A DNA stretch of 64,000 nucleotides from an uncultured Candidatus Saccharibacteria bacterium (GTDB lineage: Bacteria > Patescibacteriota > UBA1384 > DTJR01). Shown one piece after another: positions 2,615 through 11,412 of this stretch (position 1 is the first letter of the stretch; every line of letters starts with the position of its first letter). Made by a program: the position numbers and the translations under genes. Under the pieces are notes generated by a model that was given only the letters and a program-made list of their open reading frames with translations, was not told the DNA's origin and made no database searches. Where the stretch lies: positions 136,983 to 200,982 of the forward strand of contig CAZAOT010000003.1 in NCBI GenBank assembly GCA_964487045.1. Reading direction: 5' to 3'.

Positions 2615-2708
2615 TGGTGGTGCATAATGGAAATTGTTCGAACGCATTTCGCCGGCGAAGCCGGCGTGAAAAACACCCCCGAAAATTCCCGACTGAATTC
2701 TGAACTTT
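2615..2708 (+). repeat. inverted repeat A, + copy (TGGTGG core plus 88-bp arm)
   Basis: Positions 2621-2708 are 100% identical to the reverse complement of 3881-3968. The arm contains the hairpin CGCCGGC-GAA-GCCGGCG. Confidence 0.9.
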
Positions 2709-2781
2709 GACAATTTCAACTTTTTAGTGAGCAAAGCTCACTAGAGAAATCTTACCAGATTTCTCTCTTGGCGGCAAATTC

Positions 2782-3813
2782 CTAACCGTAATTTTTGATT
2801 AGTTTTTTCGAGAACCAATGATATTTTCCGAGACCTACCAAAAAACTCAGTAAAGTGTTGGAAAGTCGGTTATTAAGCTTAGTCAAAAAATTCGCGGACG
2901 AAAGGACCCTCTCGTGTCTGCGCTTAATCCTTAAAATTTCAGCAATGCCTTCGCATTTGTATTTAGGATTTACAATTCTATGTGCGACATCTCTTCCCGA
3001 AACTAAACCAAAATAAATTCCTTCACCAGTCAATCCAGAGGCAAAACCACCAGCGTCACCAACAAGAAATTTATTTCCAAATTCAAACCCTTGATAATCA
3101 AAATTTATTGTCCAACCTTGCAATTTTGAACCTTGAATATCGATTTGTTTATCGGCTAGCCATCGATGAAATGCTTTCTGCAGAGTTGAAGGTCTGAAAC
3201 TTCTTGTATCCTGACAGCAGCCAACCGAAGTATAGCCTTTATGTGGGAAAATCCACGAATATCCGCTTCCAAAAAGACTGGTATCAACATGATACTCCAT
3301 ATTTTTCAAATTTTTAGGAATAAAATATTGAATTGCCATGAGAAATTTATTGTTTTTCAAACCAAGCGATTTTCTGACGAGCGAGTTGCTTCCGTCTGCT
3401 CCAACTAAATACTTGAATGAAATTTTTTTACCGTCGGCTACGACAAAGTTGGTGCCGATTTCGGTTACATTACAACAAGTCTTAACAGTTGTTTTTGTGG
3501 AGAGTTTATTGGCTAAAAATTTGCCTAATTTGCCCCGATCAATCGTTCCCACGAAAGGAATACTGCCATTTGAAATTTTTACATTTTTTTCTTTTGAGGA
3601 AGCTATGACTTCAGAGAATAAAATTTCAGCAGTATCAAGTGGAATGTTTAAATTTTCAATTTTCGTTGTCAGCCCGCCAGCACAAACCTTTGGGCCAATC
3701 TCATTGTTTTTTTCTAGCAACAAAACCGTCATTTCTGACTTTTGCAATTCAATAGCACAGCTTAACCCAGCTGGCCCAGCGCCAACAATAATTACATCGT
3801 ATCCATCTATCAT
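2782..3813 (-). CDS. FAD-dependent oxidoreductase, geranylgeranyl reductase family
   Basis: 343 aa. The N-terminal GxGxxG Rossmann motif (DVIIVGAGPAGLSCA) and overall layout resemble the geranylgeranyl reductase / FixC family. The gene is flanked by the inverted repeat A pair. Confidence 0.7.
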   Translation of the reverse strand: MIDGYDVIIVGAGPAGLSCAIELQKSEMTVLLLEKNNEIGPKVCAGGLTTKIENLNIPLDTAEILFSEVIASSKEKNVKISNGSIPFVGTIDRGKLGKFLANKLSTKTTVKTCCNVTEIGTNFVVADGKKISFKYLVGADGSNSLVRKSLGLKNNKFLMAIQYFIPKNLKNMEYHVDTSLFGSGYSWIFPHKGYTSVGCCQDTRSFRPSTLQKAFHRWLADKQIDIQGSKLQGWTINFDYQGFEFGNKFLVGDAGGFASGLTGEGIYFGLVSGRDVAHRIVNPKYKCEGIAEILRIKRRHERVLSSANFLTKLNNRLSNTLLSFLVGLGKYHWFSKKLIKNYG

Positions 3814-3880
3814 AAAAATTTTCTTTTACAAAACAATGATTCGAGCCGATATTTTTGAACAGGTTTCTTTGGCAGTTTTG

Positions 3881-4067
3881 AAAGTTCAGAATTCAGTCGG
3901 GAATTTTCGGGGGTGTTTTTCACGCCGGCTTCGCCGGCGAAATGCGTTCGAACAATTTCCATTATGCACCACCATTTCGGAAAGAGCAAGTTTTCGGTTT
4001 GCGCCTCGCTTCGCTCGGCGACAAGTTTGTAGGGAATTTTCGGAACAATTTGCCACTTTCGATTTTG
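3881..4067 (-). repeat. central inverted copy of repeat A (3881-3968), CCACCA core (3969-3974) and repeat B (3975-4067)
   Basis: Reverse complement matches A at 2621-2708 (88/88) and B at 5481-5573 (93/93). The junction is the same 6-bp core as at the other sites. Confidence 0.9.
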
Positions 4068-4121
4068 AATGCATTTGTAAAAGAAAATTTTTATGAAATT
4101 TAGGAATAAATAAGGAGGAAA

Positions 4122-5675
4122 ATGAAATACATAATTTATGCCAGAAAAAGCACGGAAGAAGACGACAGACAAATTTTGAGTATTGAAGCGCAGCTTCATG
4201 AACTTTCTGAATTTGCCGCCAAAGAAAAACTTGAAATTGTCGCTTCTTTTCAGGAAGCCAAAACTGCCAAAAAACCTGGGCGAACAAAGTTCGCTGAAAT
4301 GTTAGAAATGATTGAGAAAGGAAAAGCGGACGGAATACTCTCGTGGCATCCTGATAGGTTGGCAAGAAATAGTGTTGACGGCGGGAAGATTATTCATTTA
4401 GTCGACCAAGGTAAAATCAAATCCTTGAAGTTCCCAACATTTTGGTTTGAACCAACTCCGCAAGGACTTTTTATGCTCCAAATTGCTTTTGGTCAAAGTA
4501 AATACTATGTCGATAACTTACGAGAAAATGTCACACGAGGTATGAATCAAAAAGTTAGAAATGGTGTTTGGCCATGTCTTGCTCCAATCGGTTATTTGAA
4601 TAATCCAAAAACCAGAGGAATTGATTTGAATAAAAAAAGGTCATTAATTGTGAAGAAAATGTTTGAGCTTTACGCTAGTGGAAAATACAATCTTCGGGAA
4701 TTAACCGATTGGGCGAAAGACAATAACTTCAAAAGCAATTTAGGAAGACCACTCACACCAGGGAAAATTCAAAAGATTCTCCAAAATGTTTTTTACCTTG
4801 GTCTTATGAAATACAATGGAGAAATCCATGAGGGAACTCACAGGCCGATAATCTCAAAGAAACTTTTTGATAAGGTTCAGCAAGTGATGAAAGAAAAAGG
4901 CAAACCGCATAAACAGAAAAAGCATCATTTTGCTTTTCTTGGTTTAATGAAATGCAAAAGTTGTGGTTGCTCAATTACTGCCGAAATTCAAAAAGGTCAT
5001 AATTATTATAGATGCACCAAGAAAAAGCAAAAGTGCAACGAAAAGTATATGCGAGAAGAATCACTTGTTGAACAAATTCATGAGTACCTGCAAAAAGTTT
5101 CTTTGCCCCGCCAAGACACCGAAAAGGTTTTGTTTGAGCTTCAGAAGGAAGAAACTCAAGCAAAAGAACAAGCCAAAACTTCCGTTCAATTTCTCAAAGT
5201 AAAACTTGGACAAACCGAAAAACAACTTGAAAAATTACTCGATGTTTATTTGAACGAGGTAATTACAACCGAAGAATATACTTTGCGAAAACAAAAATTA
5301 TTAAGCGAAAAACTTTCACTCAATGAGCAAATCAAAGATTTTGAACAAAAAGGCTTGTCTTGGCTCGAACCGGCCAGAGAGTTCGTTTTATCACTTGCCA
5401 AAGCTGATAAACTAAAAAATTCTGGAAATTATCCAGAAATTCTAACATTTCTCAAAAATATCGGCTCGAACCATTATCTACAAAATCGAAAGTGGCAAAT
5501 TGTTCCGAAAATTCCCTACAAACTTGTCGCCGAGCGAAGCGAGGCGCAAACCGAAAACTTGCTCTTTCCGAAATGGTGGGCGGGAGAGGACTCGAACCTC
5601 CACGCTTTTAGGGCACTAGCTCCTAAGGCTAGCGTGTATACCAATTTCACCACCCGCCCGACTGCATTATTATAG
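4122..5675 (+). CDS. large serine recombinase (resolvase/invertase N-terminal domain, recombinase domain, zinc ribbon and coiled coil)
   Basis: The N-terminus IYARKSTEEDDRQ carries the catalytic Ser in the R-x-S context. It also has GILSWHPDRLAR, a Cys-rich zinc ribbon (CKSCGCS...YYRCTKKKQKC) and C-terminal coiled-coil segments. The ORF has no stop until 5675, so its last roughly 65 codons run through repeat B and the antisense tRNA; the true C-terminus is uncertain. Confidence 0.85.
   Translation: MKYIIYARKSTEEDDRQILSIEAQLHELSEFAAKEKLEIVASFQEAKTAKKPGRTKFAEMLEMIEKGKADGILSWHPDRLARNSVDGGKIIHLVDQGKIKSLKFPTFWFEPTPQGLFMLQIAFGQSKYYVDNLRENVTRGMNQKVRNGVWPCLAPIGYLNNPKTRGIDLNKKRSLIVKKMFELYASGKYNLRELTDWAKDNNFKSNLGRPLTPGKIQKILQNVFYLGLMKYNGEIHEGTHRPIISKKLFDKVQQVMKEKGKPHKQKKHHFAFLGLMKCKSCGCSITAEIQKGHNYYRCTKKKQKCNEKYMREESLVEQIHEYLQKVSLPRQDTEKVLFELQKEETQAKEQAKTSVQFLKVKLGQTEKQLEKLLDVYLNEVITTEEYTLRKQKLLSEKLSLNEQIKDFEQKGLSWLEPAREFVLSLAKADKLKNSGNYPEILTFLKNIGSNHYLQNRKWQIVPKIPYKLVAERSEAQTENLLFPKWWAGEDSNLHAFRALAPKASVYTNFTTRPTALL
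5481..5579 (+). repeat. inverted repeat B, + copy (93-bp arm plus TGGTGG core) abutting the tRNA 3' end
   Basis: Positions 5481-5573 are 100% identical to the reverse complement of 3975-4067. The core at 5574-5579 is the tRNA ...ACCA end on the opposite strand. Confidence 0.9.
5574..5659 (-). tRNA. tRNA-Leu (anticodon TAG), type II with long variable arm
   Basis: I folded this by hand from the reverse complement. It has a 7-bp acceptor stem (GGGCGGG/CCCGCCC), anticodon stem CTAGC/GCTAG with loop CTTAGGA (anticodon TAG), a roughly 15-nt variable arm, T-arm GGAGG-TTCGAGT-CCTCT and an encoded CCA. Confidence 0.85.
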
Positions 5676-5722
5676 GTTAAAATTTAAAATTTGTCTATAA
5701 GAAGGAGTATTTATTGCCCTAA

Positions 5723-6711: not shown

Positions 6712-8985
<2,274 letters not shown>

Positions 8986-8987
8986 GG

Positions 8988-10586
8988 TTATTTTGTTTCT
9001 TCTTTAGCTTCTTCTATTTCTTTTTCTTTATGTTGTTCAATTGCCTGAGAGATAATCTCTGTCAATTTTTCACCGTCTTTATCATCGAAGTCGCCAGTTT
9101 CATCGATCTTCTTAAGGATTTCTTTTCCTCTGGCATTTACCGCTTGGATGATAGAAGTCTCCGCATATTTAATCTTGTCAACCGGAACCTCATCAAGTAG
9201 TCCATTTGTAGCAGCGAAAAATATTGCAACTTCATCGGTAACCGGTAGCGGCTCGGCTTGCGGTTGTTTTAGAAGTTCGGTGAATCTTCTACCTCTTTCG
9301 ATCTGTTTTTTGGTAGTATCGTCAACATCTGAGCCAAATTGCGCAAATGATTCGAGCTCTCTGAATTGTGCTAAGTCGAGCTTTAGCTTTCCGGCAACTT
9401 TTTTCATTGCTTTAATTTGAGCAGCACCACCGACTCTAGAAACTGACAATCCGACGTTGACCGCTGGTCTAATACCTTTGTAGAAGAGATCTGGTTCAAG
9501 ATAAATCTGTCCGTCAGTGATTGAGATTACGTTGGTTGGAATATACGCTGAAATATCTCCCGCTTGGGTTTCGATAATTGGTAGTGCGGTTAAACTTCCA
9601 CCACCGCTGTCTTTGTTGAGTTTGGCTGCTCGCTCCAAAAGTCTTGAATGAAGATAGAAAACATCACCAGGATAAGCTTCTCTTCCGGGAGGTCTTCTAA
9701 GCAAAAGTGATATTTCTCGATAGGCCCAAGCCTGTTTTGTAAGATCATCATAAATAATCAACACGTCTCGCCCCTCTTCCATGAAGTACTCACCCATTGC
9801 ACAACCAGAGTATGGCGCGAGAAAGTTAAGTGGGGCAGGATCGGAGGCAGTTGCGCAGACTACAATTGTGTAATCCATTGCTCCAACTTCCTCTAGTTGA
9901 GCGACAATTTTAGCAATCTTAGACTTTTTCTGACCAATCGAAACATAAATACAAATTGGTCGTTTCTTTTCGTCTACTTGTTTTTGGTTGATGATTGTAT
10001 CAATCGCGATTGTAGTTTTTCCGGTACCGCGGTCTCCAATAATAAGCTCTCTTTGGCCTCGTCCAATTGGAATAATTGAGTCAATTGCCTTAATACCAGT
10101 TTGTAGTGGTTGGCGTACACCTTCTCTAGTGATAACACCAGGAGCTACTCTTTCTACCTCCATCATTTTTTCAGCTTTGATTGGTCCCTTATCATCGATT
10201 GGACTGCCAAGTACATCCACAACCCTTCCGATCAAGCCTTTACCGGCAGGAACTTTCAAGACCTCGCCGCTAGGAGTAACTTCATCAGAAGATGAAATTT
10301 TTTCGAACTGACCAAGTACTACCGCGCCAATCATTCCTTCTTCTAGTGAGAGTGCCATCGCTGGAACGGAGCCTTCTTTGGTTTTGATGTTTAGGAGTTC
10401 ACCGAATTTTGTTCCTCCTAGTCCTAAGATTCTTGCAACACCGTCGGCAACTTCAGCAACCTCGCCGACACTTCGGGTTTTGACTTCTTCGTCAAAGTTT
10501 AAAATTTCTTTCTTAAGCTGATCGACTAAATCACTCATAGTCACCTTCCAGTTGATTCTTTTATTTTTTCTAATTTGCCTCTCCAT
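8988..10586 (-). CDS. atpA: F0F1 ATP synthase subunit alpha
   Basis: 532 aa with P-loop GDRGTGKT. Confidence 0.97.
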
Positions 10587-10930
10587 GAGAGGTCTAAAAT
10601 TCCATCGCCTAATTTTATCTTCAATCCTCCAAGCAATTTTTTATCGACTTCATATCTTGGAAGAATTTTTGAATCTAATTTTTTTATTAGCTTTTCTTCA
10701 AGTATCTGTTTCTCGGAACCAGTTAGCTCGTGAGCAGAGGTGATCAGAACAATGATTTCTTTGTTTGATTTAGCTCTTATCTCTCTAATTAGGCTGATCA
10801 TTTCTTCGAGGCGGGAAATTTTCTTTTGTTTCTGCAATTCAAACCAGAGCGATTTAGCAAGTTGCTCGATGTTATCATCGCTTAGTTTTCCCGCCGCAAT
10901 TGTAGCAATGTCGTTTACTGTTCGCTTCAT
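10541..10930 (-). CDS. atpH: F0F1 ATP synthase subunit delta (short form)
   Basis: 129 aa. The C-terminal [21 protein letters not shown] matches the delta/OSCP C-terminus and the operon position fits. It is shorter than the usual roughly 180 aa. Confidence 0.7.
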
Positions 10931-11412
10931 TATTTCACTTTATCTATAGCTTTTTGAATGCTGGTTTTATCAACTTCTGATTCCATGACTTTTTCACTGA
11001 TCAAGAGAGCTAGGTCGGTGATTTCTTTCTTAGCTTTTTCGACTATTTTCTCTTGTTCGGCTAAGGCTTGTTTTCGAGATGATTCGATAATCTCGGCTGC
11101 CTTATCTTGTGCTTCTTGGATTTTCTTTTGCGTTTCTTCACCAATTTCTTTCTTGGCCGAGGCAACGATTTTTTCGCTTTCGCTCGAGGCTTTTGAAAGA
11201 AGTTTTTTACTTTCCTCGCTTGCTTGCTCTAAGCGTTTTCGAGCCTCTTCAGAATCCTTCAAGCCCTGCTCTATTTTTTTCTTTCTGTCTGAGAGCATGT
11301 TGACGATCGGGCCATAAAGAAATTTTCGAAGTAGCAAGAATAAGATCAAGAAGTTGATAACTTGAGCGATTAGAAGCTTCCAGTCAATTCCTAAGCTTTC
11401 TAGTGCTTCCAT
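10930..11412 (-). CDS. atpF: F0F1 ATP synthase subunit b
   Basis: 160 aa with an N-terminal transmembrane helix and a long charged coiled coil, in the expected operon position. Confidence 0.85.
   Translation of the reverse strand: MEALESLGIDWKLLIAQVINFLILFLLLRKFLYGPIVNMLSDRKKKIEQGLKDSEEARKRLEQASEESKKLLSKASSESEKIVASAKKEIGEETQKKIQEAQDKAAEIIESSRKQALAEQEKIVEKAKKEITDLALLISEKVMESEVDKTSIQKAIDKVK

Follow-up and report, generated by a model that had tools for sequence, protein, structure and literature searches.

Phage serine integrases, such as those of phiC31, Bxb1, A118/LI and TP901-1, are large serine recombinases (LSRs) that act at a short core within a protein-coding gene and duplicate no target sequence. 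In the model for the A118/LI integrase, the outer motif of attP half-sites is shifted ~5 bp outward relative to that of attB half-sites. Among other serine enzymes, the invertases of the Hin/Gin family are small (~190 aa), have a C-terminal helix-turn-helix and use 26-bp sites together with a Fis-bound enhancer, IS607 has an N-terminal MerR-like DNA-binding domain, and TnpX/TndX uses many GA sites and has no fixed target. Genomic islands of tyrosine integrases at tRNA genes have been catalogued in Islander (PMC4383910). The locus described here lies in a 64,000-nt stretch of contig CAZAOT010000003.1 from an uncultured Candidatus Saccharibacteria bacterium (hereafter the window, to which all coordinates refer). 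The interval 2615–5579 is probably an integrated site-specific mobile element of 2.96 kb that belongs to a large family confined to Patescibacteria, and by analogy it appears to work like a serine-integrase island. It shares with the phage integrases the domain set of the enzyme, a short core, an apparent lack of target duplication and a 5-bp motif shift between the half-sites of element and host. Unlike them, it inserts not in a protein-coding gene but at the CCA ends of many tRNA genes, has ~100-bp arms and carries an attP that overlaps the 3′ end of its recombinase gene, so that the tail of the protein varies with the junction; it also retains a second, inverted attP-type site when integrated, and its cargo is one gene, not a phage.

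The element is assembled from two arms, A and B, that meet at a hexameric core. On the + strand, the core reads TGGTGG at 2615–2620 (J1) and 5574–5579 (J3) and CCACCA at 3969–3974 (J2), as first annotated. Direct comparison confirmed that the two copies of arm A (2621–2708 and the reverse complement of 3881–3968) are identical at 88/88 positions and the two copies of arm B (5481–5573 and the reverse complement of 3975–4067) at 93/93. With the core included, the perfect runs reach 97 nt (2615–2711/3878–3974) and 99 nt (5481–5579/3969–4067). J1 is of the attL type and joins the host flank to the A copy at 2621–2711 (+), a P′-type half-site identical to the inverted copy at 3878–3968 (−). J2 is of the attP type and inverted; its minus strand reads from B into A, the B copy here being the non-coding one (3975–4067, −) upstream of the recombinase gene. 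J3 is of the attR type and joins the coding B copy (5481–5573, +), common to J2 and J3, to the target tRNA. A blastn search with the arms gave E values of 1e-46 and 1e-49 and no further copy of arm A or arm B in the 64-kb window; being found only at these sites and with these E values, the arms are neither a dispersed repeat nor a product of chance. The possibility that they belong to a high-copy genomic repeat family unrelated to the recombinase, which the initial annotation had named as the finding that would speak against it, was checked and is ruled out by the lack of other copies in the window. An exact-match search of JGI metagenomes for arm A of the window gave 0 matches, and an Rfam scan found the tRNA and nothing else.

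The core is the CCACCA 3′ end of an intact tRNA-Leu(UAG) gene (5574–5659, −; ARAGORN; 58 bits in Rfam), which forms the target half-site; at J3 it comprises the CCA end, the discriminator base and the last acceptor-stem bases. A promoter-like site, TAGACA-17-TATAAT, lies upstream of the tRNA (5669–5697, −; consensus match only), and a terminator scan placed a hairpin with a T-run directly outside J1 (2589–2604, −). From these two flanks it follows that the 2.96-kb interval is an insert between tRNA-Leu(UAG) and its own terminator; the hairpin is the displaced native terminator and the host half of attL. Flanks with a hairpin and T-run recur at many related loci, and their sequence is not conserved between genomes. 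An alternative offered in the initial annotation, that a central attP-like B/A site has been kept beside attL-like and attR-like sites, fits this anatomy exactly and holds throughout the family.

The large serine recombinase is encoded by an open reading frame (ORF) of 517 aa (4122–5675, +; Pfam), in which residues 1–486 are conserved and the last 31 are an antisense translation of tRNA-Leu. It contains a resolvase-type catalytic domain (PF00239, E = 9e-24, residues 4–150) with a YARKST motif at residues 6–11, a Recombinase domain (PF07508, E = 3e-16) and a zinc ribbon (Zn_ribbon_recom, PF13408, E = 1e-6), and it matches the A118 integrase RD-ZD chains 4kis and 6dnw in the PDB (E = 3e-7). Its domain set and the register of its half-sites, described below, make the enzyme a member of the LSRs. 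There is no stop codon before arm B, which provides about the last 32 conserved codons of the gene (codons 454–484); the frame reads through B and the core (codons W485–W486) and then along the antisense strand of the tRNA. A protein search returned at least 7,800 homologues, nearly all from Patescibacteria and 65–91% identical. Their conservation extends to the part that arm B and the core specify (...NIGSNHILQNRQLIFSPKIPYNLVAERSEA..LTFP.W[CW]), after which the sequences diverge. Most tails past the core are translations of the antisense tRNA T-arm (GRDSNPH, GEDSNLH and the like), and a minority are translations of arm-A-like sequence (SILKIVRTHFAA...). By this pattern, arm B is one attachment-site arm as well as the 3′ end of the recombinase gene, and arm A is the other arm. 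The closest recombinases in phage and plasmid collections have only 25–31% identity, and viral contigs yielded only two matching N-terminal fragments.

An attachment site that overlaps recombinase coding sequence, with integration altering the ORF, is also found with SSV1-type integrases. Unlike these, the present element swaps only the non-conserved tail past residue 486 and leaves the enzyme intact, and it differs further in its serine chemistry and bacterial host. The peptide encoded by arm A is itself conserved, and its stop codon usually lies at the arm boundary (within 5 nt in 31/43 loci). Arm A may encode a functional protein tail, or the pattern may reflect constraint on the DNA. In the window, an ORF on the minus strand (3810–4199) crosses the inverted B copy, the core and arm A, continues for 57 codons past the core and terminates in an ATGA overlap with the cargo start codon at 3813. 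At other loci, the frame through B, core and arm A gives a conserved peptide (SILELVRTHFAACGGEE..AAEPHR), which sometimes extends into KNIGSNHIL and ILGEENFLI.

The family was surveyed in 160 related loci, 80 from species-representative genomes and 80 from metagenome contigs, which were annotated with profiles of both arms, ARAGORN and tblastn. The same layout is present in >90% of them, beside 13 tRNA types (Leu, Arg, Ala, Lys, Val, Gln, Tyr, Ile, Met, Gly, Asn, Phe and Glu). In 110/142 informative loci the recombinase gene ends next to a tRNA 3′ end, an inverted arm B lies upstream of the gene in 125/129, and an inverted arm A directly adjoins that B copy in 114/123; the partner A copy is found 0.6–1.8 kb beyond in 76/80. 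Each of two contig collections contained more than 500 confirmed matches. When recombinases were clustered at 90% identity, the same enzyme was found with at least 6 different tRNA-antisense tails, showing that the element has moved recently between tRNA genes. Several genomes have copies at different tRNAs (L029/L040/L046, L016/L032, L064/L065 and L096), and in L096 two elements face each other across a four-tRNA cluster.

Departures from the common layout were also seen. In L056 (6770–6870), all that is left of the cargo cassette is a palindrome at the GC hairpin; the recombinase cassette is joined straight to a host terminator in L057 (6840–6870), and arm A is fused in frame to recombinase codon ~46 in L075 (6950–7030). 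The closest long relative, L001, has a recombinase with 91% identity; at 7756–10987 a different A-type arm comes after the recombinase, and beyond it lie an OLD-family nuclease and an N6/N4 DNA methyltransferase, with no tRNA within 6 kb. This locus may represent a larger defence cargo or a tandem element. About one third of the contigs L002–L179 end inside or right beside the module, and one recombinase, P0113, is present on >24 contigs of at most 5 kb; Patescibacteria assemblies break systematically at the element.

Comparison of the half-sites gives an indication of how the target is read. Counted from the first base of the core, the tRNA half-site has the sequence CGAAC beginning at position 20 (58/59 loci), where in the window it belongs to the T-loop, and arm A has it beginning at position 25 (46/46 loci). 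By analogy with the A118/LI model, this 5-bp shift would be the register difference expected between attP-type and attB-type LSR half-sites. The host-side flank shows no conservation among loci, where it can consist of a terminator, a further tRNA or the start of a gene; target recognition therefore probably rests on the tRNA half. J1, J2 and J3 share 4–8 nt that covary with the tRNA end (GTGC, GTGG, GCTC, GCTG, TGGTGG and others), which is compatible with a putative 2-bp crossover near the discriminator base. After CGAAC-CATTT, ~90% of 98 distinct A arms have a GC hairpin with a 7–8-bp stem and a 3-nt loop (2650–2666 in the window). The stem sequence varies between loci with pairing retained, and the hairpin lacks a T-run and is hence not an obvious terminator. 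GC-rich hairpins had been attributed to both arms: the strong hairpin of arm A (CGCCGGC-GAA-GCCGGCG) was borne out, and arm B has no significant one. Both arms contain the 12-mer CCGAAAATTCCC ~60 nt from the core (2679–2690 and 5505–5516; also 3899–3910 and 4032–4043). It forms a direct repeat across the B/A junction, and related loci have a similar C-rich plus AAAAT(T)C motif at the equivalent place.

The gene between the A copies differs in nearly every locus, and the genes are unrelated between loci. In the window it encodes a 343-aa FAD-binding oxidoreductase (2782–3813, −; ORF list; Pfam FAD_binding_3 and related) oriented in the same direction as tRNA-Leu. Elsewhere the cargo includes an HD phosphohydrolase, a metallophosphatase, an NAD(P)H-hydrate dehydratase, a radical SAM enzyme, methyltransferases, an SRPBCC protein, an RDD membrane protein, pilin-like proteins and many small secreted proteins. 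The scaffold around the cargo is non-coding, conserved and composed of pieces of the recombinase unit, to which the window scaffold matches at 20/21, 23/24 and 23/23 positions. On the J1-arm side, the trailer (2712–2781, −) is homologous to recombinase codons ~29–39 (GAATTTGCCGCCAA...GAAATTGTC; alignment to 4209–4242) and is interrupted here by hairpins; in the family, inverted-repeat matches cover codons 28–40, and the trailer is conserved among the window, L001 and L002 despite their different cargo genes. The leader on the J2-arm side (3810–3880, −), conserved in the family, consists of a fragment resembling codons 46–52 (3860–3880), a copy of the codons for KNIGSNH(IL) (KNIGSNH in the window, 3835–3858; 23/24) and a copy of motif M (3810–3832; 23/23). 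Motif M (TTTGTAAAAGAAAATTTTTATGA) also lies upstream of the recombinase gene (4074–4096, +).

The cargo has a fixed orientation. In 93/98 loci the trailer sits at the J1 arm, as against 0–1/98 for the leader, 34/34 clear cargo ORFs diverge from the recombinase gene, and the cargo always points in the direction of the tRNA, towards the displaced terminator. Given this fixed placement, cargo inversion is unsupported, and frequent inversion is ruled out by the same census. One recombinase beside exchangeable, mostly single-gene cargo with conserved flanks is also characteristic of integron cassettes and of the staphylococcal cassette chromosome (SCC; ccr), and SCC likewise uses an LSR, with the 3′ end of a conserved housekeeping gene as its insertion site. 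Unlike these systems, the element has no tyrosine IntI, attI or attC, usually carries one cargo cassette and has a scaffold of recombinase-gene fragments. With a serine enzyme and a cargo bounded by arm A copies and a recombinase-derived leader and trailer, it is not an integron.

The arms evolve in concert. Within a locus the copies have a median identity of 98–100%, compared with ~70% for the same arms between loci, and this supports the earlier proposal that their perfect identity reflects ongoing exchange. Of the two contig sets that carry recombinase P0113, one has an A′ hairpin matching A and the other an A′ of the common family version, a difference that represents a conversion event caught between strains.

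The initial annotation had further suggested that either cassette could flip. This did not hold for the cargo, as noted above; for the recombinase cassette, a small number of natural variants show the reverse orientation. Loci L094–L099 have the canonical order, host–A–cargo–A′–B′–recombinase–B–tRNA-Leu. L091–L093, from three further samples and assemblers, share this recombinase and cargo at 99.6–100% identity, arranged there as recombinase–B–A–leader–cargo, which yields a 549-aa protein that reads through arm A. L092 and L095 have cargo-side flanks (tRNA-Gly, RbfA and IF-2) of 98.9% identity and recombinases of 99.9% identity, the recombinase segment lying in opposite directions in the two. 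In L091 and L093, tRNA-Lys adjoins a non-coding B copy and the order is tRNA–B′–recombinase–B–A-leader–cargo; the tRNA is likewise joined to a non-coding B copy in L015, L033 and L159. As judged from these assembled contigs, both orientations of the recombinase cassette exist in nature. DNA bracketed by inverted sites, with the recombinase gene inside its own segment as with hin, recalls the Hin, Gin, Cin and Pin segments. Unlike these, the element has an enzyme of 486 conserved residues with LSR domains, ~100-bp arms and sites that are hybrids of att arms, and its inversion would be rare. It is not a Hin-type invertase in protein size, domains or arm length.

We propose that the element would move as a circle, with recombination between its B/A junction and the CCA end of a tRNA gene generating J1 and J3 and keeping J2 inside. 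The LSR would insert it exactly at the discriminator/CCA position and leave the tRNA intact. J2 is a complete, inverted attP-type B/A site kept in the ~300-bp region between the two diverging genes, and its presence is the reason why each gene is bracketed by ~100-bp inverted repeats. Frequent exchange or gene conversion between inverted copies would maintain the identity of the arms. Once the element is integrated, transcripts that start at the tRNA promoter would cross the recombinase gene in antisense and the cargo gene in sense and end at the old tRNA terminator, keeping the recombinase quiet and the cargo expressed. Cassette inversion would occur via J2 × J3 or through homologous exchange between the B copies; the inverted recombinase gene would lie downstream of the tRNA and be co-directional with it, and its tRNA-antisense tail would be swapped for a tail encoded by arm A. 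In the window, the flipped recombinase cassette would read 5452–5480 + arm B + TGGTGG + TGCATAATGG..., then CAAAACTGCC, and its other join, of the non-coding B copy to the tRNA, would read as the reverse complement of 4068–4100 + arm B + TGGTGG + GCGGGAG. The excised circle would read arm B + TGGTGG + arm A + GACAATTTC, and the empty tRNA site GCGCATTTCTTTGCT + TGGTGG + GCGGGAG.

As part of this account, we further infer that the recombinase itself would catalyse inversion, that inversion would serve as an on/off or directionality switch and that J2 would also be an operator. The recombinase-cassette switch itself is put forward tentatively, with a likelihood that ranges from low to at best about one third of full confidence. 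A more elaborate form, which we regard as rather unlikely, is a self-inverting switch in which the orientation antisense to the tRNA, with its meaningless tRNA-antisense tail, is a locked silent state and the flipped form is driven by the tRNA promoter and has the conserved arm-A tail (W[CW]SILELVRTHFAA...). Tail and orientation would control expression or directionality without a separate factor, and the double-ended cargo cassette would be an exchangeable, tRNA-anchored single-gene platform analogous to an integron.

Several points weigh against this account. For the window itself, inversion and excision are predicted rather than observed. Recombination of attP with attR is not known for canonical LSRs, whose attL × attR reaction depends on a directionality factor. 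No directionality-factor gene was found in the element, which has two genes between J1 and J3, the second of them locus-variable; a trans-acting factor was not systematically searched for. The excised-circle junction, B/A followed by the trailer, was not found among the proteins and contigs inspected. By-eye comparison of the left halves, arm B and the host flank, gave no assignment of arm B to the attP or attB register. The orientation variants are not clean either: in L092 a degenerate A arm and leader precede the recombinase, and in L091 and L093 the B copy on the tRNA-Lys side differs from the coding copy within its 35 core-proximal nt. These variants could be mosaics formed by homologous recombination, or partly chimeric assemblies. 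Moreover, conservative recombination at the core alone cannot homogenise the arms. In L003 and L044, the J2 core is deleted and the remaining repeats are still 100% identical; homogenisation therefore can proceed in the absence of site-specific exchange at J2, and its simplest cause would be homologous exchange between the inverted copies.

Part of this evidence would be expected of a static element, integrated through J1 and J3 and rarely excised, in which J2 is a duplicated binding site that represses divergent promoters, like res between tnpA and tnpR, the repeats are a by-product of RecA-type conversion, and the variants are mosaics or chimeras. Indeed, J2 lies within a 308-bp divergent intergenic region, the orientation is canonical in >90% of loci, the variants are mosaic, repeat identity outlasts deletion of the J2 core, and the proximal parts of the arms differ at the host junctions in L091 and L094. 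This explanation leaves unaccounted for why the duplicated stretch comprises ~100 bp per arm, as against a ~50-bp site, and has sharp boundaries that are conserved, why identity also extends to the far A copy at J1, and why the tRNA adjoins the non-coding B copy in five independent loci; we consider it possible, with a minor share of the likelihood. A double phase-variable switch, in which both cassettes would flip often under recombinase control and turn cargo and recombinase on and off, would be in keeping with the perfect inverted sites with a common core that bracket both cassettes and with the very frequent breaking of contigs at the module. Any 100-bp repeat is expected to break contigs, however, and the positions of trailer and leader and the uniform divergence of the cargo ORFs make such a switch very unlikely.

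The inverted repeats could also be read as halves of palindromes, left by two independent mini-elements whose circles, with palindromic sites (A′/A and B/B′), were inserted serially at the tRNA end. Junctions of the majority type, TGGT-GC-ACCA and ACT-GC-AGT, contain a palindromic GC that could be the crossover; in addition, the cargo backbone resembles a circularly permuted recombinase gene opened at codons 40–45, and both a recombinase-only insertion (L057) and a cassette–recombinase–cassette layout (L082) occur. Against this, core types GG, TC, TG, GT and AC show the same architecture, and the + strand cores of J1/J3 (TGGTGG) and J2 (CCACCA) have no dinucleotide in common. J2 can therefore be only an inverted site and neither cassette is excisable alone, which excludes such circles for this window; we regard the proposal as highly improbable. 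Finally, the window comes from a metagenome-assembled contig and many related contigs end at the module, so that the inverted duplications might have been made by an assembler at a repeat. The four-arm layout nevertheless recurs in >110 independent contigs that differ in assembler and sample, and these have locus-specific arms and occasional decayed copies; an artefact is extremely improbable on these grounds and was rejected. The integrated mobile element remains the reading that we consider probable.

Other comparisons concern known classes of mobile DNA. The element is not a serine transposon of the IS607 or TnpX type, having no N-terminal DNA-binding domain and a tRNA 3′ end as target in the 110/142 loci given above, and it does not have the defining features of an insertion sequence with terminal inverted repeats. 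With the tRNA islands of tyrosine integrases it shares insertion at the 3′ part of a tRNA gene, serial insertions at one tRNA and relic tRNA-end fragments, represented here by the sequence J0. It is unlike those islands in its serine enzyme, the crossover at the extreme CCA/discriminator end, the lack of a long duplicated tRNA segment and its size of 3 kb. No description of this element family was found in the full-text literature searched. The element differs from the described systems known to us or found in its tRNA CCA-end target, the attP lying over its own recombinase 3′ end, the retained inverted attP-type site, the ~100-bp identical arms and the single-gene cargo on a scaffold of recombinase fragments, and it is apparently undescribed.

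Traces of older events surround the element. J0 (2472–2489, +) is an 18-nt copy of the tRNA-Leu 3′ end (TGGTGGGCGGGAGAGGAC) that matches 5574–5591 at 18/18 positions and lies 125 nt left of J1. To its left (2400–2471) is a weak arm-B-like match of 13/14 nt, a score reached by 3/500 shuffles; J0 may be the relic junction (attR) of an older, decayed insertion. At other loci (L013, L025, L102, L145 and L150), decayed recombinase fragments lie just outside J1, upstream of the A arm, which suggests serial insertions at one tRNA, with the older copies displaced and eroding. Further from the element, a copy of motif M (TTTGTAAAAGATAATTTTAATGAAATT; 2 mismatches, 0 expected by chance) occupies 1677–1703 in the 3′ end of a DHH-family ORF (1002–1811) and is followed by GAAATTGTC, as in the cargo trailer. 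Within the recombinase coding region, a terminator-like hairpin with a T-run lies on the tRNA strand (5420–5438, −), ~135 nt beyond the tRNA 3′ end, and could stop tRNA read-through.

Given its abundance, the family appears to be a principal carrier of single-gene variation in streamlined Patescibacteria genomes. A serine integrase lineage that reads the near-universal T-loop and CCA end of tRNA genes, with the host flank apparently irrelevant, is unusual biology, and natural landing sites for it would exist in any genome, which points to a possible use. The three-site layout of attL, inverted attP and attR makes excision without a directionality factor, and self-regulation by inversion, testable questions in these bacteria.

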